Virus record (IMG/VR): IMGVR_UViG_3300018083_000005
Location: 1-57,639 of that record
DNA: 57,639 nucleotides
Source: a virus
Taxonomy: Duplodnaviria > Caudoviricetes
Strand: one strand, 5' to 3'
Shown: positions 521 through 55,029 of the stretch, in pieces
How positions within the stretch are numbered: position 1 is the stretch's first letter
Layout: the number at the start of each line of letters is the position of its first letter
The notes under the pieces: generated by a model
Seen by the model: only the letters and a program-made list of their open reading frames with translations
Database searches by the model: none
Told to the model about the DNA's origin: nothing
Made by a program: the position numbers and the translations under genes

Positions 521-539
521 AGTGTAGCCTACGTGTCAA
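521..539 (-). promoter_or_regulatory. short-spacer promoter-like site TTGACA-N7-TACACT
   Basis: Minus strand TTGACAcgtaggcTACACT, about 7 nt upstream of the RBS of 302-496. Confidence 0.75.
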
Positions 540-548
540 ATCGTAGGA

Positions 549-582
549 TTTGCAAGGTAATCATTTCTGATTACCTTGCAAA
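549..582 (-). terminator. perfect 15-bp hairpin with GAAA loop (terminator or processing stem)
   Basis: TTTGCAAGGTAATCA-TTTC-TGATTACCTTGCAAA; loop reads GAAA on the minus strand. Confidence 0.55.
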
Positions 583-1023
583 CCTTACGGGGTTGTGCCG
601 ACCAGCTTGTTATCCTTGGTACGGCAGTGTCGGCATGTACGCAGGAAGTAGAGTTTACCGTCTGCGTATGCGTACAGATGACCGCGCATACCAGGGATGA
701 AAGCATTACCCCTGGCAACACACTTGCAAGGTGCGTAAAGCAGCTTTGTCACGGAAACCTCCGTAGTTGTATTGCAAGTTAGGTATACTGAAAGCCCGGC
801 TTTGCGAAACTTCCAGTTTGTTCTACTGAAAATCCGCAAAATAGGCCGTATACCTAGTAGATGACCTAGTAACTACTGGTAAAGAGCTTTACCAGCCTAG
901 AAGACCCTACGAGATTCGGGGAGTCTCTGTTAGGTGTTGCATACGACAAACATTCGCCAAAAACATGCCCATTTGCAGGGAAAGCTCGTATATCAAACAT
1001 TCCCGCAAACTTCAAACTTTACA

Positions 1024-1044
1024 AAGCGAACGTCTGTTCGCTTT
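1024..1044. promoter_or_regulatory. palindrome containing CGAAC-N4-GTTCG (LexA/Cheo-box-like, or terminator of 1053-1319)
   Basis: aagCGAACgtctGTTCGcttt, core at 1027-1040. Confidence 0.4.
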
Positions 1045-1052
1045 TGGCCTGT

Positions 1053-1319
1053 CTACTGCCACTGAAACTTCAGAAGTTCCTTTATGTTTGCAGGCTTGCG
1101 TCCCCTGCCACCGATGTGCTTGGCGCACATCCTGTGCTTGGTAGTGCCGTTAGGGTTCTTAGTCACAAGAACCGGCTCCTTGCAGCCCTTGACCCTGCAG
1201 TGTTCCAGCGCCACGTGCCGTAGCAGGATGGTCTGTGCAGACTCTCCTGTGACGCGCTTAGCCTTCATGACCGCGTTGCCACGGGGACTTGCAAAGAGAG
1301 GCTCAGCCTTCTTGTACAT
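1053..1319 (-). CDS. small basic protein with Cys/His (zinc-binding-like) motif
   Basis: C-x4-C ... C-x2-H pattern; ACCGAGGGAGG RBS; own promoter-like site. Confidence 0.75.
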   Translation of the reverse strand: MYKKAEPLFASPRGNAVMKAKRVTGESAQTILLRHVALEHCRVKGCKEPVLVTKNPNGTTKHRMCAKHIGGRGRKPANIKELLKFQWQ

Positions 1320-1345
1320 GGTGCCTCCCTCGGTTGCCTACTTGC

Positions 1346-1364
1346 AGTGTAGCAGGCCTGTCAA
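1346..1364 (-). promoter_or_regulatory. short-spacer promoter-like site TTGACA-N7-TACACT
   Basis: TTGACAggcctgcTACACT upstream of 1053-1319. Confidence 0.75.
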
Positions 1365-1421
1365 ATCCCGTAGATTTCGGGTTAGCCGATATTTCCGGGT
1401 TTGTTCTGCCGTGCTAATCGC

Positions 1422-1440
1422 ATGCTACAGGCAGTGTCAA
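1422..1440 (-). promoter_or_regulatory. short-spacer promoter-like site TTGACA-N7-TAGCAT
   Basis: TTGACActgcctgTAGCAT. Confidence 0.6.
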
Positions 1441-1449
1441 ATGTTGTAT

Positions 1450-1480
1450 TGCCCGTGCTACCCCTGCCCGTGCTACCCCT
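1450..1480. repeat. 15-bp tandem duplication TGCCCGTGCTACCCC x2
   Basis: Direct repeat in the non-coding control region. Confidence 0.85.
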
Positions 1481-1537
1481 GCCTGCCTGCCGTGCCTAGC
1501 CTCCCTCCCTCGGTTGCGATCCGGACTTGCACACCGC

Positions 1538-1556
1538 AAGGTGACAGGCCTGTCAA
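1538..1556 (-). promoter_or_regulatory. short-spacer site TTGACA-N7-CACCTT containing perfect palindrome TGACAGGCCTGTCA
   Basis: Weak -10; palindrome at 1542-1555. Confidence 0.5.
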
Positions 1557-1600
1557 ATGTGCCTATGTGCAGGGCTTTCATACGTGCAGACTTGCAACAT

Positions 1601-1619
1601 TTGACAGACCTGCTTTACT
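1601..1619 (+). promoter_or_regulatory. short-spacer promoter-like site TTGACA-N7-TTTACT (divergent, rightward)
   Basis: TTGACAgacctgcTTTACT upstream of the ACCGAGGGAGG RBS of 1662-2306. Confidence 0.65.
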
Positions 1620-2306: not shown

Positions 2307-2322
2307 CGGCAGGCCGAAAGAC

Positions 2323-8827: not shown

Positions 8828-9265
8828 ATGCAGAAGCCACTTATTGCAGGTATAGCTGTCGGTATTATTCTACTTATTAGTGGTGGAGCTACAGCCGTTC
8901 AGTTAAGTGCAAATTCGACGGCGATCAATCCTGCACTTGGCGCACCCCCCGTGAGAGTTGTATCTGTTAGTGATACTGCTATTCAACTGGACTATGGGCC
9001 GTCGCAACCTGGCCCATTCAAAGCAGGTGTAGCAAAGGCAACGTCACTGGTAATTAACTGGCCCGCATCAATAGATACACTTCATCCAATAGGTCTTACA
9101 TACACAGTTGTCAAGGATGGCGTAGTTATCAATTCAGGACTCGTCGGTAACTCTATTAAAGTAAGTTTTTCTCCAAAGATACGTTCATTCAGATTTTGTG
9201 TTAAAGCTGTAAACTCTGCAGGTATATCCTCGCCGTTTGGTTGTACAACTTTTACAGGACAGTAA
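8828..9265 (+). CDS. secreted or membrane-anchored fibronectin type III-like protein
   Basis: Start at ATG 8828 after AGGAG; hydrophobic N-terminus; W-PAS-D...Y-V...F-VKAVNSAG FN3 signature. Confidence 0.7.
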   Translation: MQKPLIAGIAVGIILLISGGATAVQLSANSTAINPALGAPPVRVVSVSDTAIQLDYGPSQPGPFKAGVAKATSLVINWPASIDTLHPIGLTYTVVKDGVVINSGLVGNSIKVSFSPKIRSFRFCVKAVNSAGISSPFGCTTFTGQ

Positions 9266-9657
9266 TGTATGATGCGGATACTCTGCTACAAAGATGGCTT
9301 GCAGATGAATCCGATCGCGCAGAACGTGCATGGGATAATCTAATCAATGCGATACGTAAAGCTCCAAATATTCCACTACATGATCTAGATAAATGGATTG
9401 AACTCAATCATCAACTGCCCCGTACAGGGCGGGATGATCGTAGACCAAGACCGAAGATCGTGGACAAACTAACTAAGAGACAAGAGCAGGTATTGCAGAT
9501 GTATGCCAGTGGTCTATCCCGTGAGGAGATTGGTCAGAGACTCGGGATATCTCCTGAGACAGTGAAGAATCACTTTGCTAGAGCGCGTTATAGACTAGGA
9601 GCATTGACTTCTGCAAATGCTGTTGCCATTGCTATACGAGAAGGTTTCATTAAATAG
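9265..9657 (+). CDS. LuxR/GerE-family HTH protein
   Basis: LTKRQEQVLQMYASGLSREEIGQRLGISPETVKNH...LGA...AVAIAIREG; start at TAATG overlap. Confidence 0.9.
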   Translation: MYDADTLLQRWLADESDRAERAWDNLINAIRKAPNIPLHDLDKWIELNHQLPRTGRDDRRPRPKIVDKLTKRQEQVLQMYASGLSREEIGQRLGISPETVKNHFARARYRLGALTSANAVAIAIREGFIK

Positions 9658-18543: not shown

Positions 18544-19538
18544 TGCCTGCTGGACTAGGTGGAGGCGGTAAGGTAGGTATCGCCTTTGAAACTACTATGG
18601 GCACATATGTTGCCCCAACGATCTTCGTTCCGATTCTCAGTGAATCTCTGATGTACAACGAAGATAAGTATTACTCTGAGCAGATTCGTCAGCAGACGGT
18701 TGTTTCTGACGTGAAGCAGAGTTTCTACCATGTCGAAGGCGATATCGAAATGGAAGTCGATCCTACTAACCTCCCATATTGGATGTACGCTTCCCGACAC
18801 ACAATTGCTAAGTCGGCTGGCCCTCCGTATACCTACACGTATACGCCGTCGTCGGCTGGTTCTGCAAGCACAGCGGCGGGTACGACGACTCCTAAGACGC
18901 TCTCAATTACTATCGTTCGTAACAGCGTCGTGTTCGGCTATACAGGCTGTGTCGTCGGTAGCTTTGAATTCGTCCTGGGTATGGACGACGGTGTACTTCG
19001 CTGCACTATGAGTGTTCTCGGCCTAGCCGAAGCAGTGCAGTCGGCTCCGTCGCCTTCGTGGTCTGCACCCGATCTACTTGGTGCCGCCGCGCATCAGGTG
19101 TATCTTGCCGCGTCCGCCGCAACGCCTACGTTCGGCGCTGCAGATACGGGATTTAATGGATTCACATTCCGTGCTAACTACAATGCAGAGGCACAGAACA
19201 GAATCAATACGCTCAGGTCGGCAAGCTATATCAGCTACGGGATCACGGAAGCCGAGATTGAGTCGGAGCTTGACTTCCTCACCCGTACTGACTATGACAA
19301 CATGGTTGCCAATACTACCCGTGCTGTCAAGCTTGAGTCGGCTAACGGTGGAGCTACATTCGCCGCTGGTTCGTCAGGCGTGAAGCTGCAGGGTAACAGA
19401 GTCAGCTATGACACCTACGAGGTTGGCCTTGAAGGAATGGGTGACCTGATCATGGCAGGATTCACTGGTCGCTGTGTCGGTATTACGTCTGGTAACCCCT
19501 ATCAGATCGAAGTCAAGTCAACTGCGAATATCACGTAA
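18543..19538 (+). CDS. major tail (tube) protein
   Basis: GIAFETT-G-Y-AP, SES, V-GDIE, YTGC-V motifs; followed by terminator and chaperones. Confidence 0.9.
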   Translation: MPAGLGGGGKVGIAFETTMGTYVAPTIFVPILSESLMYNEDKYYSEQIRQQTVVSDVKQSFYHVEGDIEMEVDPTNLPYWMYASRHTIAKSAGPPYTYTYTPSSAGSASTAAGTTTPKTLSITIVRNSVVFGYTGCVVGSFEFVLGMDDGVLRCTMSVLGLAEAVQSAPSPSWSAPDLLGAAAHQVYLAASAATPTFGAADTGFNGFTFRANYNAEAQNRINTLRSASYISYGITEAEIESELDFLTRTDYDNMVANTTRAVKLESANGGATFAAGSSGVKLQGNRVSYDTYEVGLEGMGDLIMAGFTGRCVGITSGNPYQIEVKSTANIT

Positions 19539-24677: not shown

Positions 24678-25895
24678 ATGTTCCGTATCCGCCATCTGAA
24701 CCACGTAGGGGGTCTTGTTGCCGAGCATCAGATGGTCGGAGGGACGCTTAGTTATAGCTTTCGTGCTGGACAACCTGGCGACATTTCATATCAGCTAGCG
24801 AATAGCATTGGCGGTATTACACGCGATGCTTTCGCGCCCTACTATACTGACTTCATGCTGCAGTATCAAAATCCCGCTGGTGGTAGCTATCAAAATATCA
24901 TGGGCGGTATTCACGTCCCTGTGAATCTGAAGAACGACGAGGATGCTATCAATATCGCTGGTAAGGATTGGTCGCACTGGCTTGAGCAACCCTACTGGTT
25001 TCCATTCTATGCAATAGACTATACTAATGGTACTGCTATGCAGCAAATGATAGATGCTAGCCGAACATACACCGCAGGTATAACGGAGACTGTTGCGGCA
25101 GTAGCATTCTATCCACCAATATTGCAGGCACAGATTATTTCAAAACTGATCCTAAATACACAACCCACAGGACGACCTGCTTCGGGTAGTTATCCAGGTT
25201 TGACAGGCGGTAACTATGTCCCTATCAATGCAGTATTCAACGACTTCTCCGGTTCTGCACAGTTTACTAATAGTTCGCTAATCATTCAGTTCCAAGATCA
25301 GACTACAGTTCTTCAGCATATAAATAACATCGCCGCCTTCGATGAGCCTTATGGATTCGATTGGACAATGAATCCGGATAAGACAATGGAGTTCTTTGGC
25401 CCACGTAAGGAAAGGAAATACGCGCCTGATCCAATCTGGACTATTTCCAAGGATCAAATCATTGGTGGTCTAGATGAAAACCCCATGTTGGAATTGGACT
25501 GGACTAACAACGGGCCACTAGCCTCACATCTTGTCGGAGTGTCGAACGGCAGTCCTGGTGCATGGTGGCATAAGCGCGATCAGGACAGTGTGAATCGATA
25601 TAGAGAATGGCTGCGTATCGAAACCCTCGGGGATCAGTATTGGCGAGGGCCAGATATGCGCCATGCGCTCGACGGTCTGGACTATCTACACCCACAGAAG
25701 GACTTGCGTATCGTCGTCCTACCTTCCCTACTGACCGATGGGTTCAAGAACCACATCGGGGATGTTGTACGTGTCAAGTGGGACTTTCCATACTATCATG
25801 AAATCAACGCCTACTACTGGATTAATGAGCAGACGTATGACAGTGACGGTGAGGAATGGAAACTGACCCTGGGGTTGCAGCAAATCTATGACTAA
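24678..25895 (+). CDS. minor tail (hub) protein
   Basis: 405 aa, GFDW and IGDVVRV motifs; position. Confidence 0.75.
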   Translation: MFRIRHLNHVGGLVAEHQMVGGTLSYSFRAGQPGDISYQLANSIGGITRDAFAPYYTDFMLQYQNPAGGSYQNIMGGIHVPVNLKNDEDAINIAGKDWSHWLEQPYWFPFYAIDYTNGTAMQQMIDASRTYTAGITETVAAVAFYPPILQAQIISKLILNTQPTGRPASGSYPGLTGGNYVPINAVFNDFSGSAQFTNSSLIIQFQDQTTVLQHINNIAAFDEPYGFDWTMNPDKTMEFFGPRKERKYAPDPIWTISKDQIIGGLDENPMLELDWTNNGPLASHLVGVSNGSPGAWWHKRDQDSVNRYREWLRIETLGDQYWRGPDMRHALDGLDYLHPQKDLRIVVLPSLLTDGFKNHIGDVVRVKWDFPYYHEINAYYWINEQTYDSDGEEWKLTLGLQQIYD

Positions 25896-27774: not shown

Positions 27775-28413
27775 ATGAGTGCAATTGAATTCTCACCCAA
27801 TGCAGTATCTCTCGACGGTTGGCTTGCCGCTGGCGAAACCTTCACCTACGCAAGCTCTACTACTTTTACTGTGGCAGGGGATCGGACGGTACGTTACTCA
27901 AAAGGCACAAGAATCAAACTCACCCAGAGTACGGTTAAATACTTCGTGGTTACTCTCTCCGCATTTTCTGCCGGGGTGACAACAGTTACTATCACGGGCG
28001 GCACCGACTATACACTTGCAAACGCGGTAGTCAGTGATCCATTCTATTCCTATGCAGCAAATCCCCAGGGCTACCCCAGGGGCTTTAACTATACTCCGAC
28101 GTTCACGGGGTTTTCTGCAAACCCGGCCACATCTGTTTACTTCTCCGTTCAAGGAACGGTTGTCACCTGTGTATTCTATCCTGGTTCAAATGGAACGAGC
28201 AACGCGAACTCGCTTACTATGTCTTTGCCCATCGCGGTAGGCTCAGGAGTGTGGACTGCGATGCGCGGATTCGACAACGGCGTAGATGTAACGAACTCTG
28301 CGATGGGTCTTCCAAGTGGCTCTACGCTCACGGTCTACAAGGATTGGGCCGGTGGCGGCTGGACTACCTCGGGAGCCAAGCAAGCGTCCGGCACGATCAC
28401 GTACATAATGTGA
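27775..28413 (+). CDS. stand-alone receptor-binding module, paralogue 2
   Basis: First ~105 aa nearly identical to the corresponding part of 25888-27771; divergent C-terminal tip. Confidence 0.85.
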   Translation: MSAIEFSPNAVSLDGWLAAGETFTYASSTTFTVAGDRTVRYSKGTRIKLTQSTVKYFVVTLSAFSAGVTTVTITGGTDYTLANAVVSDPFYSYAANPQGYPRGFNYTPTFTGFSANPATSVYFSVQGTVVTCVFYPGSNGTSNANSLTMSLPIAVGSGVWTAMRGFDNGVDVTNSAMGLPSGSTLTVYKDWAGGGWTTSGAKQASGTITYIM

Positions 28414-28419
28414 GCTAAT

Positions 28420-29055
28420 ATGAGTGCAATAGAAGTCATACGAGAACGTGGCGACGGTTGGATATACGCCGACGAAACACTGACCTATGCCAGCGCGACT
28501 ACTTTCACTGTCGCGGGTGATAGAACAGTCCGTTATTCCAAAGGTACTCGGCTTAAGCTAACGCAATCAACAGTCAAATACTTCGTCGTTACCTTATCTT
28601 CTTTCTCAGCCGGGGTGACCACGGTTACCTTCACAGGAGGTACGGACTACACACTTGCCAATGCTACTATCAGTGATCCGTTCTATTCATATGCTACAAA
28701 CCCACAAGGGTATCCGACCTACTTTAACTACACTCCAACATGGGGAGGATTCTCTACCGCTCCGGCACTTGGAGGCGGGATGTGCAGGTTCTCAGTTGTT
28801 GGAGGAGTATGTTTCTATATGGCTCATTTCAACACATCTGGAACCAGCAACGCTACTAGCTTGACGGCTTCTATCCCCGTCACTAACGCAAGCTTTGGTC
28901 AGTACCCCGTCACCCGCATACAGGACAATGGAACTTACTCCTTCGGAATGTGCGAGGTTACTTCTGTACTCACATTCTTCAAGGATGGAAGCGGTACAGG
29001 CTTCACAGCTAGCGGGTCAAAGAACGCTTGGTGGGGAGTGTCCTACATCATCTAA
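28420..29055 (+). CDS. stand-alone receptor-binding module, paralogue 3
   Basis: Same conserved DGW..ET.TYAS...KGTR.KLTQSTVKYF...NPQGYP..FNYT segment; third distinct tip. Confidence 0.85.
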   Translation: MSAIEVIRERGDGWIYADETLTYASATTFTVAGDRTVRYSKGTRLKLTQSTVKYFVVTLSSFSAGVTTVTFTGGTDYTLANATISDPFYSYATNPQGYPTYFNYTPTWGGFSTAPALGGGMCRFSVVGGVCFYMAHFNTSGTSNATSLTASIPVTNASFGQYPVTRIQDNGTYSFGMCEVTSVLTFFKDGSGTGFTASGSKNAWWGVSYII

Positions 29056-29723: not shown

Positions 29724-30188
29724 ATGAGTACAATACTCGCCATCGTTATCACTAGTATTCTCGGGCCTTGTGTACTGATGTTACTTACTGGTCATCAGCG
29801 TAGCAAGGAAAAGCAAGAAGATTGGCGACGAGAAGATATAGTTGCAGAGAAAGCAGCAGAGGCAGCAAAGTTGCTCCTAGCGGAGAACAAGAAGGTTGCT
29901 GCTAGTGCTAAGGAGGCTAGTGGTAAACTAGACGCGATCCATATACTTGTCAATTCAAACATGACAGCAGCAATGGAAGCACAGCTAGTTGCATTACAGG
30001 GACAACTAGTGGTAATGAATCGTTTAGCTAAAATTGAAGACCCGACCGTTAATGAGCAAGCTGCTATTAATGTCGTCCAGAAGCAGATTGCAGAACTTAC
30101 CGCAACAGTACGGGATCGCCTAGCTGCTACTACCAAAGTTGAGCAAGCAGAAGTAGCAGAAAAAGCAGCAGCACAGGGGGGCGAGTGA
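29724..30188 (+). CDS. membrane-anchored coiled-coil protein (lysis-associated)
   Basis: N-terminal TM segment, IH-LVNS motif, coiled coil. Confidence 0.7.
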   Translation: MSTILAIVITSILGPCVLMLLTGHQRSKEKQEDWRREDIVAEKAAEAAKLLLAENKKVAASAKEASGKLDAIHILVNSNMTAAMEAQLVALQGQLVVMNRLAKIEDPTVNEQAAINVVQKQIAELTATVRDRLAATTKVEQAEVAEKAAAQGGE

Positions 30189-30388
30189 AAACGGTCATTT
30201 TATCTTATCCCAATGGAGTTCATAGAGAGGAATTGTTGGCAGGAATCCCTCGCAAGGGTGACCATCTTCAACTGCCAAACGGTCGTGACTATAAAGACTA
30301 CATAGTAGAACAGGTTACTTTTTTACCTGCTCAGACAGGTGACCCTGAGCCATCTGTAATGCTGACAATTCGGGAATATCCGACTTGA
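30185..30388 (+). CDS. small hypothetical protein
   Basis: GTGA overlap; IPRKGD motif. Confidence 0.7.
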   Translation: MKTVILSYPNGVHREELLAGIPRKGDHLQLPNGRDYKDYIVEQVTFLPAQTGDPEPSVMLTIREYPT

Positions 30389-30558
30389 GTAAGCAAAGCA
30401 TAGCTATGGTAATCGCAATTGGAATAACGATTGTGTGAGTAGCGGCGATCATTGGAGGTATCATCCGCAGAGATTGGACGGCTCTTAACACCATTACGCC
30501 AGTTATGCTCACTGTGTGCGGTTGGCTTTATATCCGGCGAAACGGCAACGGAAAATAG
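30385..30558 (+). pseudogene. two-TM holin-like ORF interrupted by in-frame TGA (30436-30438)
   Basis: MSKQSIAMVIAIGITIV*VAAIIGGIIRRDWTALNTITPVMLTVCGWLYIRRNGNGK; fills the operon gap exactly. Confidence 0.65.
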
Positions 30559-30566
30559 GAGAGAAC

Positions 30567-30638
30567 ATGCTTTGGACAATCTTGATCATCTTGCTAATAG
30601 TCATAGCTGCAATCTGGATCGTTAACCACCTACGCTGA
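30567..30638 (+). CDS. 23-aa membrane peptide
   Basis: MLWTILIILLIVIAAIWIVNHLR; AGGAG RBS; TGATG overlap with endolysin. Confidence 0.75.
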   Translation: MLWTILIILLIVIAAIWIVNHLR

Positions 30639-31462
30639 TGCTTACCGAGAGACAAGTTCCCTATACAGGGCCATACGGTCTAACGACAGGGCCATACAAG
30701 TCGCGTGGGCCTACGGCAGAAGCGTGTAAACGCTTCATGGGTCGTATCGGACTTATGGATTGGCATGACTATGATCGGCATTGGAATGCCACACTTGGCG
30801 CTGCCATGGCGAAATACAAGAAGAAGCATGGTCTGTCTGCCGATCCGTCGTATGGCAAGTTGGTATGGGCTGTTATGCGCTCACAGAAGGTTCCATCGGG
30901 TCGTCCCAATGCGGGAGAATATGCCTTCGACTTCTATGCGCGAAAGCTGATTCAAGACGAAGCCCGTGTAACCTCTGATTCAGAGATTATGGATCAAGTG
31001 CAGTATCACATTCGCCAATTCTGGCTCAAGGCAATCGCTCACAATGAAATCTGGCACTACGATCAGGGTAGACCAAAGGATACAACCGTAGACCCTGAAA
31101 AGGGTGGATACTCTGACTGTTCAATGATGGTCATTCAGGCTGTGCGCTATGCCTGGACTATGACGGATCATGAGACTCTTGATCCTGCAAAGTGGAAGTT
31201 CACAGGATGGGGCAATACAGACTGGTACGAAGATGATTGGCCCAGAATTGGTCAGCCTTATCGCATAGGTGACCTAGCTCATTTCCAAAATGAGCGGCAC
31301 GTAATCCAATGCATTAAGGAGGGAAATGTCGATACAGCACAATGGGGTTCAAATGGATCGGAGAGAGCGCCAGAGCTAATTGGTTCGCTTCGTAGTTACT
31401 ATCGCTATCCAGATGAATTCATGTTCGTCGTCAGACCACAACTAATACCGGAGGAGTCATAA
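30638..31462 (+). CDS. endolysin: peptidoglycan-binding domain plus NlpC/P60-like peptidase
   Basis: AM-xYKKKHGL-xD-xxYG-xxW PG-binding-like motif; SDCS catalytic Cys, GDL, HV. Confidence 0.8.
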   Translation: MLTERQVPYTGPYGLTTGPYKSRGPTAEACKRFMGRIGLMDWHDYDRHWNATLGAAMAKYKKKHGLSADPSYGKLVWAVMRSQKVPSGRPNAGEYAFDFYARKLIQDEARVTSDSEIMDQVQYHIRQFWLKAIAHNEIWHYDQGRPKDTTVDPEKGGYSDCSMMVIQAVRYAWTMTDHETLDPAKWKFTGWGNTDWYEDDWPRIGQPYRIGDLAHFQNERHVIQCIKEGNVDTAQWGSNGSERAPELIGSLRSYYRYPDEFMFVVRPQLIPEES

Positions 31463-31710
31463 TGCTAGAACCACATTGGGTACAGTTCCATGATGGTGCA
31501 GGTAACTCATTCCCCATGCTCGTCACGCAACATGGTGCAGAGGAGCATGTAGGTGGTGCAGTGTTCTGTGCAGAGTCGCCGCCTGAGAGCGATGCAGGAC
31601 TACAGGAAGGTTGGAATAACCGCGTTCATATCGGACGTGGTGATGTAAGCAAGGGAGCTTCGTGGTCACCTATCGACGGCGTTGATCCCGGCGACGTAGA
31701 GGAGGGCTAA
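31462..31710 (+). CDS. small hypothetical protein
   Basis: GGAGGAG RBS, coupled both sides. Confidence 0.75.
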   Translation: MLEPHWVQFHDGAGNSFPMLVTQHGAEEHVGGAVFCAESPPESDAGLQEGWNNRVHIGRGDVSKGASWSPIDGVDPGDVEEG

Positions 31711-32105
31711 TGTCAATCGCTGCTCAAGGTTGGGTTAAAGCAGGAGTCGCATTGATCATGGCGATCCTTGCGGCTTTGACCGTTGCACTTACGGGCAAGA
31801 CCGACATTGGAGATATCGACACGCAAACGTGGTTGATTGCTCTAGGCGCAGTTCTCGCGTCTGGTGCGTTGGTAGCATTCGTAGACAACGTGCCTGGTAT
31901 CTACGGTGGGGCAATCAAATCGTTCATCGGCGCAGCGGGTGCATTCGTTACAGCACTCGTCCCGGCATTCGATGATCGTGTGGTTTCACAGCTAGAGCTA
32001 CTGACGGCAGTTAGCGCATTCGTCGCAGCACTAGCATTGGTGTACCAGATTCCACAGCCGCCTGAGTCGAATCCTGCACCATCTTCACCCACTGATGGGG
32101 GCTAA
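31710..32105 (+). CDS. holin-like protein (four TM, internal duplication)
   Basis: Two K-A/S...-D...-W/L-...-[VI]P units, strongly hydrophobic. Confidence 0.8.
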   Translation: MSIAAQGWVKAGVALIMAILAALTVALTGKTDIGDIDTQTWLIALGAVLASGALVAFVDNVPGIYGGAIKSFIGAAGAFVTALVPAFDDRVVSQLELLTAVSAFVAALALVYQIPQPPESNPAPSSPTDGG

Positions 32106-33434: not shown

Positions 33435-33733
33435 TCCGCACTTTCCCAATAGTCGGCAGCGATACCAGTATCAGGTGCCGGTTCAGTTCCCAGTGCTTTG
33501 TCGAGAGCAACAAGGGCGCGGCCTAGATTAGTACCCGGTACAAATTCTGCTCCATACTCGACCGCATCTTCTGCCGTCTCTAACACTTCCACGATCTGTG
33601 GAAGCGCAGTACGGCGGAAGTCGCGTATGTCGGAAGGTGTCCCTCCGGGCTGGTCGTAATGCCACGGAGCCGCGAAACTCTCAGCCATGATTGCCTTTAG
33701 TTTTTCGCTTGCACTCACTTTGCTTCTCCCCAT
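33431..33733 (-). CDS. hypothetical protein
   Basis: 100-aa ORF in operon. Confidence 0.65.
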   Translation of the reverse strand: MGRSKVSASEKLKAIMAESFAAPWHYDQPGGTPSDIRDFRRTALPQIVEVLETAEDAVEYGAEFVPGTNLGRALVALDKALGTEPAPDTGIAADYWESAE

Positions 33734-36180
33734 GTAGGGCCGACACCGAATTCTGCTACGAATGGCAGTGTCCAGCCTAGTTCGTCAAGGGCCACAGAGG
33801 ACATTACTTGTTCGCAGACTGTAGAGTATTCTTCGATGTACGCCTGCTCAACGTCTGCAACGATTGAGTCGTGAACCAGAATGCAAATTGAAGCCCTGGA
33901 TCGATCGATTTCATCAGCAAGCCTAATTGCAGCACAGAGGGTGAGGTCGGACGCAGTGCTTTGCGGATAGAAGTTAATTCCTTCCCGGTAAGCAGCTTGG
34001 AGGTTTTCACGTGTAAGTAGATGGAACCGTCTTTTTCGCCCGAAAGGTGAAACGAGTACATGCTTGGTTTTGACTTCACGTCTTACTTCATCCTCCCATT
34101 CCTCTACACCTTTGAATGTTTGCCACACCCATGCTATGTAGGGTTCTGCTAGTCGTTTAGGAATACCGTGCTTCTCTTGGAATGTATCCGCACTCTGCCC
34201 ATAGAATACACCGAAGTTTACGTTTTTGCAGGTCGAGTATTGCTCGTCAGTATAGTCTGCCCCAAAGAACTTGGTTGCAGTCTCCCTGTGGAGTGATAGG
34301 TTGTTACGGTAAATTCGTGTAAGCTCTGTATCGCCCGAAAACTGAGCGATACATCGAAGTTCCGCCTGCGAGAAGTCTGCTTGTACAATTTGTCGGCCAG
34401 GAGAGGCGCGAAATAGTTTACGGATATCCGGCAGTCCCTCTTTCGACCGCGTGATATTTTGCAAGTTAGGTTTACTAGACGAGAGCCGCCCACTGTTCGT
34501 GCCATGTAGGTTGAGCTGAGTGTAAATCCGAGAATCTTCATCTAGCTCTGCTCTTTGGATGAGTCCGACGAGGTACGTCCCATCTTGTTTGACAAGTTTT
34601 TGGTAGCGGTCGTAAGATTCTGTAAAGCTAATGTAGAACTTCTTGCGTTCGTCGCTATCCTCCGCAGTGACAGAGCGTACAATGTTGCCTTCACGTTGAA
34701 CCACTGTCTCTCCCCGAAACTTAAATCGTCCTTCGATGATTTCTTTTCGTGCTGAGTCATCGATACTCCTCTCTGGGTTGGGCATGTTCTTCAGTGGCTT
34801 ACGCTTCTGCATCGCATGCTTGATACCCCATACGTCATAGTACAGATGCGACATTTGCTTAGGCGATCCGACATTGAGCAATGGATTACCGGCATGCTGC
34901 TGTAGCTGCTTGGCAATCTCCTCTAACTCAGGCAGTACCTCAAACTCATGGATATCACCAGCGCGTACAGAATCATAGATCATGCCGTCCAGTTCTACAT
35001 CGGTGCAAAAGCTATTACCTCGTAATAGTAGGTGGCTATAGGCCCGGAGTACATCGTCTCTTTCTGCGCGAGGGTACTGCTCCCCGAAAAGTTGGAAAGT
35101 GCCGCCAACGTCCATTCCCGCATACCTATAGAATTCATCGTAGTCTGTGACGACTCCGGATTTCTTGGCCGCTTCAACAGCAGGACTGGAATAATGAGGC
35201 CATCCAAAAGTATCCATGAGTAGATAGTCGAGGCCATGTACCCCAATTCGCTCGTCCGTACCATTACGTTCATCGAGCGCATATGAGAGGAGCATAGTGT
35301 CATGATCTACTCTGGCTTCGATTCCGTAGGTGTGACGTAGGATTTTAGTGTCAAACTTACCGCCGTGATAGATGAAAACTCGCCCTTGCTCATTTCGTAG
35401 GACGTTGGAAAGATCCTTAATTGCATCCGGGGATCGCCAAGCTCCACCGCGCTCGCCACATACAATGGCATTGCTTCCGTCAATAGAGAATTGGACGCTA
35501 ATAAGAGTTGCTTTGTGAGATAGTCCGCCTCTGGATTCGATATCGACAGCGATATGTCCTTGGTACCGTGCCAAATCTCTAAGCGTTCTTCTAATTTCTC
35601 CAACATCTTCGATTACCTCTACTATTGGCAGGGTGGGGGGAGGTAGCGGATTGAACGCTCTTTGGAAGTCCCTTTTAAGGTCGGGGAATTTTGAGTCGTC
35701 GTGGAGGACGATTGCAGGGTTGTTAGTTGCCACCACCGTCCTGCCTCCGATGCTATGACGATATCCCCTATATCTTGAGATAGAGCCTCGTCCAATAAGG
35801 AGCTTAACTGCTTCATCTCCCGCCGCGACAACTGTATCAATACCTCGGAGTTCGTGTTCCAGACGAGGAGCGCAGGCTTTAATGGCTTCTGGCGGAATTT
35901 TCCCATCTGGTGCCACACAGAGAACAGTGTTAGTAAGAAGAACTTGCTCACGTTTCACCCCATTCATTCCGAGTAGGTAGTCCATGATCTTGCCACTACC
36001 ATACTGGCTTGCAAATGGCTCTCCCGCGATGACTTCAGGCTTGCCCGGTGAGCGCGAAACCACGGCACCCCGCACAGGGTGCATGGTGGGCTTCCGGGTC
36101 TTCACGCAGGGTGCATCTGCGAGAGGACATTCATGACATAGTGCGTGTGGTGCTTTAGCTGCTACTGCCGATGTAGCCAT
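33715..36180 (-). CDS. polA: family A DNA polymerase with N-terminal UDG-like domain and 3'-5' exonuclease
   Basis: VDIES / KFD / YAGMD exo motifs; SGRLSS..PNLQNI, DFSQAELR, KNVNFGVFYG, VHDS; N-terminal family-4 UDG fold with four Cys. Confidence 0.97.
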   Translation of the reverse strand: MATSAVAAKAPHALCHECPLADAPCVKTRKPTMHPVRGAVVSRSPGKPEVIAGEPFASQYGSGKIMDYLLGMNGVKREQVLLTNTVLCVAPDGKIPPEAIKACAPRLEHELRGIDTVVAAGDEAVKLLIGRGSISRYRGYRHSIGGRTVVATNNPAIVLHDDSKFPDLKRDFQRAFNPLPPPTLPIVEVIEDVGEIRRTLRDLARYQGHIAVDIESRGGLSHKATLISVQFSIDGSNAIVCGERGGAWRSPDAIKDLSNVLRNEQGRVFIYHGGKFDTKILRHTYGIEARVDHDTMLLSYALDERNGTDERIGVHGLDYLLMDTFGWPHYSSPAVEAAKKSGVVTDYDEFYRYAGMDVGGTFQLFGEQYPRAERDDVLRAYSHLLLRGNSFCTDVELDGMIYDSVRAGDIHEFEVLPELEEIAKQLQQHAGNPLLNVGSPKQMSHLYYDVWGIKHAMQKRKPLKNMPNPERSIDDSARKEIIEGRFKFRGETVVQREGNIVRSVTAEDSDERKKFYISFTESYDRYQKLVKQDGTYLVGLIQRAELDEDSRIYTQLNLHGTNSGRLSSSKPNLQNITRSKEGLPDIRKLFRASPGRQIVQADFSQAELRCIAQFSGDTELTRIYRNNLSLHRETATKFFGADYTDEQYSTCKNVNFGVFYGQSADTFQEKHGIPKRLAEPYIAWVWQTFKGVEEWEDEVRREVKTKHVLVSPFGRKRRFHLLTRENLQAAYREGINFYPQSTASDLTLCAAIRLADEIDRSRASICILVHDSIVADVEQAYIEEYSTVCEQVMSSVALDELGWTLPFVAEFGVGPTWGEAK

Positions 36181-42375: not shown

Positions 42376-42404
42376 ACCCTATCAAACGACGGGGCTTGTG
42401 TCAA
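42376..42404 (-). promoter_or_regulatory. canonical sigmaA-type promoter TTGACA-N17-TAGGGT
   Basis: 17-bp spacer, TG extension, upstream of the recombination/replication operon. Confidence 0.75.
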
Positions 42405-42417: not shown

Positions 42418-42621
42418 TTATTTCAATATCCCTTTTCTGAATCCAATAGCAACGGCGTGTGTAATATTCTTTGCCTGTAGCTCATAGAGTATTTGTGTTC
42501 TATGGAATTTCACTGTCTGTGGAACAATCCACAGCTTATCAGCAGTCTGTCGTAGTCCCAGACCTTGTGCTGCACACTGAAGAACCTCTAGCTGTCTCGG
42601 TGTTATTGGATTGCTGACCAT
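42418..42621 (-). CDS. stand-alone LuxR/GerE-family HTH protein
   Basis: ITPRQLEVLQCAAQG...ADKLWI..QTVKFH...L.AKN..HAVAIG. Confidence 0.9.
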   Translation of the reverse strand: MVSNPITPRQLEVLQCAAQGLGLRQTADKLWIVPQTVKFHRTQILYELQAKNITHAVAIGFRKGILK

Positions 42622-46367: not shown

Positions 46368-46829
46368 TCAACCATGTATCATAGCAAGCGCCTCTGGAAT
46401 TGTCAAGCCCTGCTTCTGTAACGATTTGAATTTGAGGTACGCTGTGTGACAGGACTTATTTTCGTTTCGTTTGTGGAACAGAGCGCCGTCTTTAGCACCC
46501 TTTATCGGTTTCCTACAGGCTTGACATATCGGACGAGCTAGCTCTGTTACGGCGTCCCTGGCTTGAGTGAATGTGTAGCCTCTGACAACCATGAGCAATT
46601 CTATCTCGTCTGCATGTTTGGTTAACCAAAGCTCTTGCCGACAAGTACGGCACGTAGTACGATAAAGGTCGCTCCCTTGAAGCACAGTACCACAGTGAAT
46701 GCATTTTGCTCGGTGATCTATTTGATCTGAACACTCAGCACACCAGCCAGTATCGTAGTTAAAATTGAGATACGAAACCCAATCCCCGCAAGAGGTACAT
46801 AGTTCCTCTAGGTCGGGAATTGCAGACAA
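46368..46829 (-). CDS. multi zinc-ribbon protein
   Basis: Five CxxC pairs. Confidence 0.8.
   Translation of the reverse strand: MSAIPDLEELCTSCGDWVSYLNFNYDTGWCAECSDQIDHRAKCIHCGTVLQGSDLYRTTCRTCRQELWLTKHADEIELLMVVRGYTFTQARDAVTELARPICQACRKPIKGAKDGALFHKRNENKSCHTAYLKFKSLQKQGLTIPEALAMIHG
46378..46406 (-). promoter_or_regulatory. canonical promoter TTGACA-N17-TATGAT
   Basis: 17-bp spacer with TG extension, just upstream of the helicase RBS. Confidence 0.75.
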
Positions 46830-47663: not shown

Positions 47664-47692
47664 ACGGTAGCACGTAAATCCCTAGTTGTCAA
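47664..47692 (-). promoter_or_regulatory. canonical promoter TTGACA-N17-TACCGT
   Basis: 17-bp spacer with TG extension. Confidence 0.75.
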
Positions 47693-49776: not shown

Positions 49777-49795
49777 AGTATACCACACGTGTCAA
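49777..49795 (-). promoter_or_regulatory. short-spacer promoter-like site TTGACA-N7-TATACT
   Basis: TTGACAcgtgtggTATACT. Confidence 0.8.
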
Positions 49796-50447: not shown

Positions 50448-50924
50448 TTAGGTACTGCTCTTTGCCTTGGACGTGCCAAGTCTTTTACCTCCCTCAATCG
50501 CATCTAACCGGGCCTTAATTTCAGTAAGCTCCCGGTCGAAGCTCAAAATGAAACCGTTTATGTCTACTCCCTGTAACCTCCTTTGCAAGTCTTTGACCTG
50601 TTGACGGACTGTATCAAGCTCTGTGGGTTTTGTCAAGCGTTTCTCGTAAATACCCACATACTCGTCGTATTCAGGCTTGTGGCGCAGCAGTATCACTGAG
50701 CCTTGCCGACCTGAACCACGCTTTACCTGTTCAATACAGCCCATCGCTGTGAGGGCGTCGAATATCTTTGTGTAATAGCCCTGACTCACGCCGATAGCGC
50801 GGAAGGCTTCGACCTTCGATCCCTCAAACTTTAGTGTACCACCGTTGTCAAGTGGAGCGGCACGTTTTTCAAGCTCGTCGTACATGTGAGCCATGTGAGT
50901 GAAGATAGCCGGAATGTCACTCAT
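50448..50924 (-). CDS. winged-helix protein with C-terminal coiled coil
   Basis: FRAIGVSQGYYTKIFDALTAMGCIEQVKRG. Confidence 0.75.
   Translation of the reverse strand: MSDIPAIFTHMAHMYDELEKRAAPLDNGGTLKFEGSKVEAFRAIGVSQGYYTKIFDALTAMGCIEQVKRGSGRQGSVILLRHKPEYDEYVGIYEKRLTKPTELDTVRQQVKDLQRRLQGVDINGFILSFDRELTEIKARLDAIEGGKRLGTSKAKSST
50608..50636 (-). promoter_or_regulatory. internal canonical promoter TTGACA-N17-TACAGT
   Basis: 17-bp spacer, TG extension; could drive 50084-50422. Confidence 0.6.
50833..50851 (-). promoter_or_regulatory. intragenic short-spacer site TTGACA-N7-TACACT
   Basis: TTGACAacggtggTACACT inside 50448-50924. Confidence 0.6.
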
Positions 50925-52764: not shown

Positions 52765-52910
52765 TTACCTCCCTTGGTTCTGGAAACCATTTGGATTCTA
52801 GGATACGCTCGATATCATCTTGCATATCCAACATTTTGTTGTGAATGATAATTACGTAGATAATCAGGATTGCTATACCGATATCCTGTATTGCATCGAC
52901 TAGATCACCA

Positions 52911-53288
52911 CTAACGGTAGGCATCGAAGCTCCTGTTGATTAGTTCATCCTTCATGATGAAATTCTCAAGCTCCATGTCTGCCTGCTTCACGATCCTAGC
53001 CCACGGCACATGGATACCACACGCCTTTGTGAATCCACCTTGTCCAGACTTGCGAATATCAAACTCATGTTCATACAAGATTCCAGCTTCACTCAGGAAA
53101 TAATCACGGAACGGATAGTCTCCGGATGTAGTAGCGGTAGTACCATCATGCTCAAATACCCACCATCCCGCTTCGTACTGTCCGGCTGATGCATCGGGGT
53201 AGACACGATCTTCTAGCGTTACCGTGATCTTACCACCCTTGTCAAGCCGACATATAAGCGTTTCACCAGCTTCAGGCACCGGAACCAT
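52911..53288 (-). CDS. hypothetical protein
   Basis: 125-aa ORF in operon. Confidence 0.7.
   Translation of the reverse strand: MVPVPEAGETLICRLDKGGKITVTLEDRVYPDASAGQYEAGWWVFEHDGTTATTSGDYPFRDYFLSEAGILYEHEFDIRKSGQGGFTKACGIHVPWARIVKQADMELENFIMKDELINRSFDAYR
53227..53245 (-). promoter_or_regulatory. intragenic short-spacer site TTGACA-N7-TAAGAT
   Basis: TTGACAagggtggTAAGAT inside 52911-53288. Confidence 0.6.
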
Positions 53289-53484
53289 CCCCTCTGATTA
53301 GCCTAGTAGTTGGCTGCTCACAGAAGAATGGTTTATCGTTACCAGCGTAATGAGCCATCATCCCTGTGACTCCTCCACACTTACTGCAGTGATAATGGTT
53401 TGAATCACCAGCAGGACAATGTGCATAGCCTGCATTGCAGATCATTACACCAGGCTCAATCTTGGTGGCTTTCTCGTATGTCAT
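53272..53484 (-). CDS. small Cys/His-rich protein
   Basis: MTYEKATK...HYHCSKCG. Confidence 0.65.
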   Translation of the reverse strand: MTYEKATKIEPGVMICNAGYAHCPAGDSNHYHCSKCGGVTGMMAHYAGNDKPFFCEQPTTRLIRGDGSGA

Positions 53485-53497
53485 TATAGTCCGGATG

Positions 53498-53665
53498 TTA
53501 TTCATCCTCTGCCCCGAATTCAAAGTCGTCACGCATGCGATCATAGACCGCTTGCTTGATTTCGTCGTCGGTCATGTCGGCCATCGGAGAATCAAAGTCG
53601 TTCTCCTCTGCCCAGACGCGAGGAGCTTCCTCTTGCCAGTTGTCTCTGTAGTCTTCGATAGGCAT
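53498..53665 (-). CDS. 55-aa highly acidic protein
   Basis: 20 of 55 residues are D/E; ACCAAGGGAG RBS. Confidence 0.75.
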   Translation of the reverse strand: MPIEDYRDNWQEEAPRVWAEENDFDSPMADMTDDEIKQAVYDRMRDDFEFGAEDE

Positions 53666-53680
53666 GTATCTCCCTTGGTT

Positions 53681-53793
53681 TGTGGAGAGTGTACGGATCA
53701 GGTGAAATCCTGACGAGGCCAGTTTTCAGTCATGGGACGCAGGGCTTCAATCCTGCACGACGACGATTTAGACCTTGACGTACACTCTCCACA
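53681..53793 (-). ncRNA. structured intergenic RNA element with 15-bp closing stem
   Basis: TGTGGAGAGTGTACG...CGTACACTCTCCACA enclosing GCAGG/CCTGC and TCAGG/CCTGA hairpins. Confidence 0.6.
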
Positions 53794-53806
53794 CTTAATT
53801 GACTGT

Positions 53807-54814
53807 TTAGGCAGTCACGTCCGCGAGAACCTTCAAGACCACTTCATCCTCGGCACCATTCTTGCCGTTGATCAGGTTCTCCATATTCCTGACCTGACGC
53901 GGGACACCCTTCCGGATCGTGCCCATGTGAAGTCTCCACGTATTGTACGCGGCGCTGACTCCAAAGGCCGTACCCCTCCACGGTGCAACGCGCAGGTCAT
54001 TGTTGTACAGATTCACAATGTCCGCTCGCTTATGCTCAGCCTTGGTCATTGCGATCTTGCTAAGATCATCATTCACGGGAATCATGATCTGAAGGTGCTT
54101 GAGAAACTGCTCGTCAGACACCTTCCATGCTGTAAGGTTAGCAACCTCCTGAGCAAACTCGTCGGACATTTCATGCACGATCTGCAATGCCTCACGTGCA
54201 TCGTTAATCCGATAGCCTGAATACTTGGTATGCTTAACCTTGAACTGCTGACCCTCCTCGCCAAGCGCCATATCCCTAGTGTTATCACACACAACGTCTG
54301 TGCGAACACGCTTGAAGGTTGTGGCGAGCGTACCATCGAAACTGGTAGCCGCGAGAAGATTCGGGCGAAACTCCACGCCTTCCGGCGTAGTGATGTTCTC
54401 AGGAACCTCGACAGAAACCCATGCCTGACCGCCCATCCTGAGAAGACCCGCCGAACCGATGCCAAGATCATCGTCCAGAATGGTTGCAACATTCTCAAGC
54501 AGCCACTCCTGGTACTGATGACCCCGGTAGCCATCCTTGAAGACTCCGAGGACTACCCCGTTATCGTCACGGACGACAGCCTTGCGGCCGGGAATCTCCA
54601 CGTACTCGCCATTCTGCTTGCGAATGTACATGGGAGAATCCACAACCTCAAAGTTGAACAGACGACGTAGAACGTCGTCCACCGGAACCGGGCCGACATA
54701 ATGGTTTGACTCGATACCCTGAAGCTCCTGGCGATAGTGCCAAGCATTTCCACGCTTCTCGGTATAACCGATAAGAGTGTTCAGGTTGAGCCACTCCATT
54801 GACTCTCGGCTCAT
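53807..54814 (-). CDS. DUF932 / TIGR03299 phage-plasmid protein
   Basis: AWH, AVVRDD...LGV...Y..HQ, SAG-L-xG, TSFDG, VVCDNT, KHT, GTAFG motifs. Confidence 0.92.
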   Translation of the reverse strand: MSRESMEWLNLNTLIGYTEKRGNAWHYRQELQGIESNHYVGPVPVDDVLRRLFNFEVVDSPMYIRKQNGEYVEIPGRKAVVRDDNGVVLGVFKDGYRGHQYQEWLLENVATILDDDLGIGSAGLLRMGGQAWVSVEVPENITTPEGVEFRPNLLAATSFDGTLATTFKRVRTDVVCDNTRDMALGEEGQQFKVKHTKYSGYRINDAREALQIVHEMSDEFAQEVANLTAWKVSDEQFLKHLQIMIPVNDDLSKIAMTKAEHKRADIVNLYNNDLRVAPWRGTAFGVSAAYNTWRLHMGTIRKGVPRQVRNMENLINGKNGAEDEVVLKVLADVTA

Positions 54815-54850
54815 ACTTACCTCCCTTGAGTAGTTTGACCGTATGCTTTC

Positions 54851-54869
54851 ATTATAACATACGTGTCAA
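54851..54869 (-). promoter_or_regulatory. short-spacer promoter-like site TTGACA-N7-TATAAT
   Basis: TTGACAcgtatgtTATAAT, both hexamers perfect consensus. Confidence 0.8.
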
Positions 54870-54879
54870 GGGACAGTTT

Positions 54880-54998
54880 CTCACGCTGACCCCACTGAGG
54901 TACCGAGTGCCAGCCGATGCTGGTCGGGGTATAATTGCTCCCACCCGATACCTCAGTGCGGCCAGCGACCGCACACTCCCTGCGAACAGCCACAGGAG
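54880..54998 (-). ncRNA. candidate ~115-nt ncRNA with its own promoter
   Basis: 5' CUG-UUCG-CAG hairpin then a ~25-bp helix (54884-54967) whose G-U pairs work on the minus strand; no credible ORF. Confidence 0.65.
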
Positions 54999-55000
54999 CA

Positions 55001-55029
55001 ATCTTACCACAGTTTACCACTTGTGTCAA
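55001..55029 (-). promoter_or_regulatory. dual-spacing promoter: TTGACA-N7-TAAACT and TTGACA-N17-TAAGAT
   Basis: A 10-bp near-duplication GTGGTAAACT/GTGGTAAGAT provides a -10 at both spacings. Confidence 0.8.

Follow-up and report, generated by a model that had tools for sequence, protein, structure and literature searches.

A promoter-like arrangement with TTGACA 7 bp from the −10 hexamer in an uncultured phage and in bacterial chromosomes

A short spacing between TTGACA and the −10 hexamer

The window analyzed here is the complete 57,639-bp record of an uncultured phage (Caudoviricetes; IMG/VR record IMGVR_UViG_3300018083_000005), whose early region carries a set of sites in which the hexamer TTGACA stands only 7 bp from a −10-like hexamer (N7 sites, as opposed to the usual N17 sites). 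A distance of 17 ± 1 bp between the −35 and −10 elements is textbook knowledge, attributed to the fixed placement of sigma relative to the core enzyme. Judging from sequence, we consider it probable, with moderate confidence, that the N7 sites are real promoters of a noncanonical architecture that is native to the host and exploited by the phage. The architecture, its conservation in related phages, and its presence in bacteria can be read directly from the genomes. A promoter of this kind would consist of a −10 TAnnnT, usually TGn extended, with a start predicted about 7 nt downstream, often at a conserved TAG, and of (C)TTGACA one helical turn closer than normal, at −25 to −20, with no hexamer at the usual −35 position. 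The layout would not be a phage invention, as bacteria, most clearly Chloroflexota and Acidobacteriota, appear to employ it for genes of their own. One phage subclade would use N7 for its first leftward genes and retain the canonical N17 for its replication genes.

We counted TTGACA-Nk-TAnnnT on both strands of the window for k = 0 to 30 and found nine matches at k = 7, six at k = 17, and 0 to 3 at any other spacing, while first-order Markov simulations (n = 300) gave a mean of 0.46 per spacing (standard deviation [SD], 0.71; maximum, 4). The nine exact N7 matches are all on the − strand, and eight of them are co-oriented with local transcription (the exception is 19312-19330); the reversed pattern, used as a control, gave none. 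TTGACA itself is over-represented in the window, with 50 matches versus 35.2 ± 5.4, and none of 100 shuffles reached 50. A histogram of spacer lengths had been proposed with the original prediction as a check, and the excess at N7 appeared in the window, in the related phages, and in the bacterial samples described below.

All 10 TTGACA-N7-hexamer sites listed in the original prediction are present with the coordinates and strands given there. The last T of the partner hexamer is indeed invariant (10 of 10), and the −10 conforms to TAnnnT in eight, the exceptions being 1538-1556 (CACCTT) and 1601-1619 on the + strand (TTTACT). TG at −15/−14, claimed for most of the sites, occurs in 8 of the 10; it is absent at 521-539 and off by one base at 1422-1440. 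The five sites said to lie directly 5′ of a ribosome-binding site (RBS) do so, each followed by an ATG (539, 1364, 1601, 49795, and 54869).

Four TTGACA sites fall within the divergent control region (1320-1661) that separates the two arms of the genome. The site at 1346-1364 (−; TTGACA-ggccTGc-TACACT) has TAG at the predicted +1, and the ATG of the first leftward gene of the control region (open reading frame [ORF] 1053-1319) is 26 nt downstream; 1422-1440 (−; TTGACA-ctgcctg-TAGCAT) is its upstream tandem partner. Only one such site, 1601-1619 (+; TTGACA-gaccTGc-TTTACT, with an imperfect −10), is directed into the + arm, 42 nt before the ATG of ORF 1662-2306. The spacer GGCCTG/GACCTG recurs in this region. 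The remaining site there, 1538-1556 (−), where TTGACA is followed by CACCTT and no −10, holds the palindrome TGACAGGCCTGTCA, which is exact at 1542-1555 as had been reported, and is a candidate operator rather than a promoter.

Beyond the control region, the site at 521-539 (−; TTGACA-cgtaggc-TACACT) also has TAG at the predicted +1, and its hexamer is 24 nt from the ATG of ORF 302-496 with a GGGAGG RBS between them. At 55001-55029 (−), a single TTGACA serves a dual site, with TGgTAAACT at N7 and TGgTAAGAT at N17, in agreement with the −10 reported at both distances; the N17 arrangement is kept in the related contigs G001 and G002. The site at 54851-54869 (−; TTGACA-cgtaTGt-TATAAT) precedes the ATG of the DUF932 gene (53807-54814) by 36 nt, and that at 49777-49795 (−; TTGACA-cgtgTGg-TATACT) is followed by an RBS and an ATG 38 nt downstream. 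The site at 53227-53245 (−; TTGACA-agggTGg-TAAGAT) lies within the 5′ part of ORF 52911-53288, and that at 50833-50851 (−; TTGACA-acggTGg-TACACT) lies within ORF 50448-50924. The latter position is kept in G002 and reads TTGCCA in G001, and it could be an internal promoter or a coding coincidence.

The four ordinary N17 promoters of the original prediction were also recovered, all on the − strand: 42376-42404 (TGa extension) before the PD-(D/E)XK nuclease gene, 46378-46406 (TGc) before the SNF2 helicase gene, 47664-47692 (TGc), and 50608-50636 (TGa), which lies within ORF 50448-50924 and is conserved in G001, G002, G003, and G005. Along the direction of leftward transcription, the order is N7 at 1440, 1364, and 539, then, past the origin, the dual site at 55029 and N7 at 54869, 53245, and 50851, followed by N17 at 50636, N7 at 49795, and N17 at 47692, 46406, and 42404. 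Therefore, N7 serves the first ~9 kb (small genes and DUF932), and N17 serves the replication genes. The statement that TTGACA copies in the rightward (virion) arm have no partner hexamer was correct in general, with one exception at 19312-19330 (−), an antisense TTGACA-N7-TAGTAT with no TG, which is probably a chance match (~0.5 expected per spacing).

Structured stretches were seen next to some of these sites. Between the promoter at 55029 and the DUF932 gene there is a noncoding stretch of about 130 to 160 nt (55000-54870, −) with several hairpins (e.g., GTGCGG...CCGCAC) and no Rfam family; orthologous stretches in G001, G002, G003, and G006 are present in all of these relatives and variable in sequence. 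The N17 promoter at 47664-47692 is followed by a conserved hairpin, GTACCTCCCTTGGTAC (47655-47625, −), with counterparts in G001 (~5500), G002 (~8760), and G006 (~3180). Its loop or stem has CCTCCC, the complement of the phage GGGAGG RBS, and it could be a translational or stability element.

Conservation and context in related viral contigs

Relatives were found through the DUF932 protein, the terminase, and the polymerase, and their contigs were taken whole. Summed over the nine related contigs, there were 29 N7 and 30 N17 matches, with 1 to 7 at every other spacing; when TGn was required, the figures were 16, 22, and 0 to 2, respectively. The 29 N7 sites come from six contigs, and TAnnnT is found in all of them because the search demanded it. 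A de novo search over all hexamer dyads and spacings ranked TTGACA at 7 first in G006 and among the leading dyads in G000 and G004. Where sites are orthologous, as before the DUF932 gene in G001, the hexamers and the spacing are kept and the spacer sequence is changed.

This arrangement is limited to one subclade, made up of the contigs that share a terminase identity of at least 61% with the window (G000 to G004 and G006). Relatives with a terminase identity of 57% or less showed a peak at N17 and none at N7. G005 has five N17 and no N7 sites, six complete distant genomes have N17 counts of 3 to 5 and N7 counts of 0 to 2, and 19 more distant contigs gave seven N7 matches in total versus seven in the reversed control.

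The surroundings of the N7 sites are those expected of promoters. Of the N7 sites, 12 of 29 are followed within 70 nt by an RBS and the start codon of an ORF of 30 aa or more, as are 9 of 28 N17 sites, compared with 6.8% of random positions. The RBS and ATG often come 20 to 38 nt after the N7 site, the sites are co-oriented with the genes, and their −10 stands as far from the RBS and ATG as it does in the phage's own N17 promoters. Because the GGGAGG RBS starts 9 to 20 nt past the N7 hexamer at several sites, no alternative −10 fits there. TAG occurs at positions 6 to 8 past the hexamer in 9 of the 29 sites (hand count; chance, ~0.5), the position at which a start at A(+1) would be predicted. 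The absence of a conserved hexamer at the normal −35 position held when 29 phage and 31 host N7 sites were covered: the best hexamer at 16 to 18 bp was no better than random.

Some features of the sites speak about what might read them. The extended −10 (TG at −15/−14) is present in 16 of the 29 sites of the related contigs, and the 13 sites that have no TGn keep TTGACA, including three tandem sites in G006 with weak −10 hexamers, which suggests that the proximal TTGACA contributes to recognition. A C directly before TTGACA is common to N7 and N17 sites and suggests the same kind of reader. The sites do not look like a contiguous or palindromic operator, as the spacer between the hexamers varies and a palindrome is found only at 1538-1556. 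A second full TAnnnT lies at N16 to N18 from TTGACA in 3 of 29 phage and 5 of 31 host sites, and TAG lies at N18 in 9 of the 29 phage sites.

G006 also has four perfect DnaA boxes (TTATCCACA; 47723, 48380, 48915, and 49258), located 4 to 5 bp upstream of TTGAC(A/G), three of them adjoining tandem N7 sites that have no TGn. The cluster could be an origin or a set of DnaA-dependent promoters. In the window, there are no perfect DnaA boxes upstream of TTGACA.

The N7 arrangement in bacterial chromosomes

Bacterial genomes were searched with the TGn-anchored pattern TTGACA-N4-TGnTAnnnT, and the matches were compared with N5 to N9 pooled, for which a uniform share would be 20%. An even sample of 401 Chloroflexota genomes gave 673 N7 matches among 1699 (39.6%), the four other spacings averaging 256 each. 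The share was 37.3% in Acidobacteriota (141 of 378 in 151 genomes) and 28.5% in Pseudomonadota (133 of 466 in 151 genomes). These values are 20, 8, and 4.6 SD above 20%, respectively, if the sites are treated as independent, which they are not wholly. Some single genomes stood out against the reversed control (G224, 23 versus 1; G215, 21 versus 3; G131, 10 versus 0; G093, 9 versus 0). Five N7-rich Chloroflexota genomes, whose choice for high N7 counts introduces a selection bias, gave 7, 23, 78, 32, and 9 matches for N5 to N9, 103 for N10 to N14 pooled, and 422 for N15 to N19 pooled. A hand count in the complete genome G255 gave 1, 3, 14, 2, and 2 for N5 to N9 and 5, 13, 45, 10, and 3 for N15 to N19. 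Both counts have the same bimodal pattern as the phage. A phylum with genomes of 0.5 to 2 Mb yielded 126 N7 matches in 121 genomes (N7 count alone). The signal emerged only with the TGn-anchored pattern and the larger samples: in five candidate genomes examined with no TGn required, there was no clear N7 excess (G009, 10 versus 12 in the control; G012, 6 versus 10). The unpublished genomes G070, G259, G376, and G481 are within the phylum samples; they have few matches, and no claim is based on them.

The most conserved bacterial context was found upstream of rho. TTGACA-N7-TATACT is located 280 to 380 nt upstream of this gene in G263 and G295 and in a more distant pair, G068 and G043, with spacers (tttgtgt, tatatgc) and leaders that differ between genomes. 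Pfam identified the Rho_N, Rho_RNA_bind, and ATPase domains in the ORFs that follow in G263 and G068, and the corresponding ORFs of G295 and G043 were called Rho from the likeness of their N-terminal sequence only. The 19-mer of the rho site or close variants recur in further genomes, by sequence alone. Two CRISPR (clustered regularly interspaced short palindromic repeats) arrays of G255 each have an N7 site ~160 nt ahead of their first repeat. Other host N7 sites precede a class II aminoacyl-tRNA synthetase gene and, in G215 and G224, S21-like, BioF-like, and kinase genes, among others. A T-box leader considered before the synthetase gene was dropped, as Rfam gave no confirmation. At least five G224 sites are copies of one promoter of tnpB of the IS605 type, with the ATG 29 to 31 nt downstream, and do not count as independent.

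G255 also has two paralogous N7 sites at 1532858 and 2565120 (TTGACAggcttgSTACAAT), with similar sequence after each, no ORF of at least 60 aa within 300 nt, and no Rfam match. The sequence that follows them may represent a small RNA family.

The rho sites bear on a further alternative, namely, that the N7 arrangement is a by-product of two promoters overlapping at a 10-bp offset (TTGACA then being part of a downstream N17 promoter), of a palindromic operator merged with an extended −10, or of composition and chance. A −10 is indeed present at both distances in three phage sites, the palindrome at 1538-1556 is perfect, and copies of insertion sequences (IS) and repeats swell the bacterial counts. 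Against this, a second TAnnnT at N16 to N18 is confined to the 3 phage and 5 host sites mentioned above; N7 sites have no canonical −35 upstream; the sites at 49.7 to 55 kb have no inverted TGTCA partner; the nine matches in the window exceed the simulated maximum of 4, with none in the reversed control; and the rho site is conserved across divergent genomes. We therefore regard a by-product as very improbable.

Three models had accompanied the original prediction, and they fared differently. An unrecognized host promoter architecture is the best fit of the three, because bacterial chromosomes are enriched in the N7 layout and keep it upstream of rho. The model of extended −10 promoters having a sigma-4-like site at about −25, read by a phage protein or a repositioned sigma-4, agrees with the extended −10 of most sites and with the two sigma-4-like proteins encoded by the phage; a phage reader is not required, and the genes for these proteins do not track N7. 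A pseudopalindromic operator whose right half has merged with the TGn extension describes 1538-1556 only and none of the other sites.

Several points weigh against N7 as a host-native promoter class. For phage and bacteria alike, transcription from these sites, the point at which it starts, and the factor that reads TTGACA are predictions from sequence. Four N7 sites of G004 have no TGn, and two sites of the window (50851 and 53245) fall within ORFs. The reversed pattern is an imperfect null. In bacteria, N6 and N8 are also somewhat raised, the five-genome histogram carries the selection bias noted above, and the excess is partly nonindependent, owing to the G224 IS copies, duplicated CRISPR leaders, and orthologous sites; the smaller excess in Pseudomonadota could reflect a generic cause. 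Further points, considered below, concern the reach of sigma-4, the phage-encoded sigma-4-like proteins, and a metagenome-assembled genome (MAG) linked to the phage group.

How the proximal TTGACA might act

Under the promoter reading that we favor, the host primary-sigma holoenzyme would handle both classes with no phage factor. The proximal TTGACA would be a site of the sigma region-4 type, displaced by 10 bp from its usual register, where the enzyme could dock or be tethered on the same face of the DNA. In a variant, RNA polymerase would dock on TTGACA and then move one turn upstream to the −10, or sigma-4 would sit differently. By the established structure of the holoenzyme, −25 is out of reach for sigma-4 on the beta-flap as long as sigma-2 occupies the −10, so having the same holoenzyme read both elements at once would need an unknown rearrangement or a sequential mechanism. 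The proximal TTGACA might act through shifted-register sigma-4 docking, an early pause, or a separate sigma-4-like factor.

The second of these possibilities needs no new geometry. The N7 sites would be extended −10 promoters at which TGnTAnnnT alone initiates, with a built-in sigma-dependent early pause. After an advance of ~10 bp, sigma-4 would meet TTGACA in the canonical register before the RNA displaces it from the flap, sigma-2 would be in register with the TAG element at N18, and the tether, at about +11 to +16, would act as a checkpoint. There are partial precedents for such a device: at PR′ of phage 82, sigma-70 region 4 is described as causing a pause at +14/+15 via a −35-like element, only while the RNA is short (PMC3326312), and for Escherichia coli a second −10-like element ~11 bp downstream, on the same helical face, is reported at some promoters (PMC7876045). 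TAG at N18 in 9 of 29 phage sites and a full second −10 at N17 in three phage sites would fit, as would the long leader of rho, the conserved host example, and the modest Pseudomonadota excess, if the pause is a property of universal machinery. Other features of the sites speak against it. Few sites have a −10-like element at N16 to N18 (3 of 29 in the phages and 5 of 31 in the hosts, the latter mostly AT-rich IS copies), and in the 13 of 29 phage sites that have no TGn, a bare and often nonconsensus −10 would have to initiate alone. TTGACA is moreover retained as strictly as in N17 promoters. For these reasons (many N7 sites with no TGn, the strictness of TTGACA, and the general absence of a second −10), we prefer a role in recognition, by a modest margin, and consider the pause unlikely.

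The third possibility is that a dedicated sigma-4-like helix-turn-helix (HTH) protein binds TTGACA at −25 and activates the promoter or shuts it off, in a way that would resemble MotA/AsiA-type sigma appropriation or a promoter-overlapping repressor. The reader would be one of two phage products or a host counterpart. The first is a protein of 130 aa (9265-9657, +) with a C-terminal HTH of the sigma-70 region-4/GerE type (GerE, 1.4e-13; Sigma70_r4_2, 3.7e-12; Sigma70_r4, 8.6e-08; phrog_3282, "sigma factor"). The second is its paralogue (39% identity over 66 aa), a stand-alone GerE/LuxR-type, sigma-4-like HTH protein of 67 aa (42418-42621, −). That both could be involved speaks against a purely host-read promoter. 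Their presence, the limitation of N7 to one phage subclade, the spacing of exactly 7 in the phages, and the recurrence of the GGCCTG/GACCTG spacer in the control region, with one perfectly palindromic copy, would favor a dedicated reader.

These genes do not track N7 among the relatives: homologues of the GerE-like genes are present in G005, G014, and G016, which are N7 negative, and none was detected in G003, which is N7 positive. The same architecture is found in bacterial chromosomes, where there is no phage protein. Across phages at 61% terminase identity, the hexamer is invariant and equal to the host −35, while flanks and spacers drift. LuxR/GerE proteins usually bind repeats as dimers, and only one hexamer is conserved here. 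By phylogenetic profile, the genes specific to N7-positive genomes are those for DUF932, the endolysin C terminus, and the ORFs at 9658, 10175, 1053, 48398, 55354, and 56190, and no DNA-binding or RNA polymerase-binding family was recognizable among them in scans that covered 40 window proteins with Pfam and 15 with PHROGs. Among the early-region genes, DUF932 alone occurs in each of the four N7-positive relatives with coverage of that region and in none of the N7-negative genomes; no role of DUF932 in transcription or DNA binding is known. A dedicated reader seems to us quite unlikely.

Only a few small genes separate the 9265-9657 gene from the large terminase gene downstream of it. Late-gene activators are encoded at this position in many phages with Gram-positive hosts, and the product may control a late promoter near 9.6 to 10.4 kb.

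In its broadest form, the host-native interpretation would be that the bacterial RNA polymerase holoenzyme can also use a −35 hexamer displaced by exactly one helical turn toward the −10, in a second, unrecognized register. Sigma region 4, or a sigma-4-like partner, would read this hexamer from another position or at another step. The register would be used in Chloroflexota and Acidobacteriota (rho, CRISPR leaders, and IS), more weakly in other phyla, and would have been adopted by this phage lineage for its early genes. We put this forward only tentatively, as a possibility suggested by the sequences.

Comparison with known promoter systems

A full-text literature search (supplements aside) found no description of a promoter class with a 7-bp spacer. 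Work by Devi et al. in 2010 is said to concern "variably spaced promoter-like elements." N7 sites share their hexamers, TGn, and the upstream C flank with canonical sigma-70/SigA promoters (TTGACA-N17±1-TATAAT) and with extended −10 promoters but differ from them in the spacer (7 bp instead of 16 to 19) and in having no hexamer at the canonical position. They would thus be a previously undescribed variant of the sigma-70-type promoter.

Other systems resemble N7 in part. The sigma-dependent pause elements of lambdoid phages and the second −10 of E. coli promoters are likewise out-of-register hexamers with a one-turn offset, and a −35-like element is bound there by sigma region 4 in early elongation (PMC3326312; PMC7876045), but they act after initiation at otherwise canonical promoters, whereas N7 sites have no canonical −35 and mostly no second −10-like element. 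Different again are systems in which the −10 is combined with an upstream element nearer than −35 or in which the −35 is bypassed. In T4 middle promoters, a MotA box is combined with appropriation of sigma by AsiA, and the upstream element is not a −35 motif; gp39 of the Thermus phage P23-45 favors the extended −10 and switches off −35 recognition, with no upstream motif. Both need phage proteins, whereas the upstream element of N7 is the −35 consensus and occurs also in uninfected bacterial genomes. The stoperators of cluster A mycobacteriophages likewise contain CTTGACA, are repeated, and are oriented with transcription. They are, however, 13 to 14 bp long, conserved throughout, and spread over the genome, whereas N7 sites retain only the hexamers and the distance between them, differ in spacer sequence, and are grouped ahead of genes in a single region.

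If the N7 promoters are real, they would imply a new engagement of DNA by sigma region 4, a widespread early-pause device, or an unknown general factor, and they would change promoter prediction for little-studied phyla and their phages. A 2025 promoter survey of 49 species (PMC12641261) scanned, according to its text, only spacers of 15 to 19 bp, and "Chloroflex" is absent from that text. N7 sites would be invisible to models with this limit, which would overlook the class systematically. The Chloroflexota rho promoter and the phage promoters at 54869 and 1364 offer concrete templates.

Candidate hosts

For this phage group, which could not be placed otherwise, the common architecture adds a weak hint as to the host. 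A scan with a terminase profile in one genome per species gave 53 loci. The best (65% identity) is on a 13-kb contig binned in a Pyrinomonadaceae MAG, the rest of which has 0 N7-TGn sites, a further point against a host-native class. About 31 of the 53 are in Chloroflexota-type records, with 26 to 50% identity and partial matches, and some of them belong to chromosomes or large contigs. The candidate host phyla are Chloroflexota and Acidobacteriota. The 13 CRISPR spacers of G255 gave only chance matches of 12 to 16 nt to the phage contigs. Among the sigma genes of G255 and G263 were several region-4-bearing frames of 316 to 417 aa, which gave no lead to a special sigma factor. The endolysin C-terminal domain is peculiar to the N7 subclade, which is compatible with a host difference.

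Genome organization and other features

The first 123 bp of the window recur at its end as a terminal repeat, so the map is circular. The rightward arm (1662-32105, +) has the terminase, portal, protease/scaffold, major capsid, tape measure, tail, and lysis genes, and the leftward arm (32395-57450 and on through 1-1319, −) has the replication genes, the DUF932 protein, and many small ORFs. The replication set consists of a family A DNA polymerase fused to a uracil-DNA glycosylase (UDG), a primase, an AAA_24 ATPase, the PD-(D/E)XK nuclease, and the SNF2 helicase; in the polymerase (33715-36180, −), the UDG superfamily domain is N-terminal and in frame. Window proteins were scanned with Pfam (40 proteins) and PHROGs (15 proteins), and no tRNA genes or Rfam families were found in the window.

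Two window segments had no DNA-level match to isolated phages by megablast. Protein neighbors are distant, the terminase being ~35% identical to those of Arthrobacter and Microbacterium phages and the polymerase ~29% identical to those of Bacillus phages. The 24 runs listed for the sequence are all DNA metagenomes, from soil, sediment, and freshwater or groundwater.

In the rightward arm, three consecutive tail-fiber-like genes (25888-27771, 27775-28413, and 28420-29055) contain paralogous segments of 243 nt, 69 to 73% identical to each other (27148-27390, 27835-28077, and 28474-28716). The lysis region (29724-32105) encodes a protein with a transmembrane (TM) segment plus a coiled coil, a 274-aa protein, and a multi-TM holin-like protein, and no lipoprotein outer spanin was recognized there. 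The 274-aa protein has a peptidoglycan-binding-like N terminus and a Cys-containing C-terminal domain, with no Pfam or PHROG match.

The control region at 540-1620 is rich in TTGCA(A/G) and CTTGCA words, one of which forms a hairpin at 551-588 (TTGCAAGGTAATCA-tttc-TGATTACCTTGCAA). The word also recurs in the unrelated control region of G002 (54000-54100), and a regulator or initiator may bind to it. Short tandem repeats occur at 268-300 and 1453-1490, comprising four copies of the 8-mer GTGCCGAA and two copies of CCGTGCTACCCCTGC.

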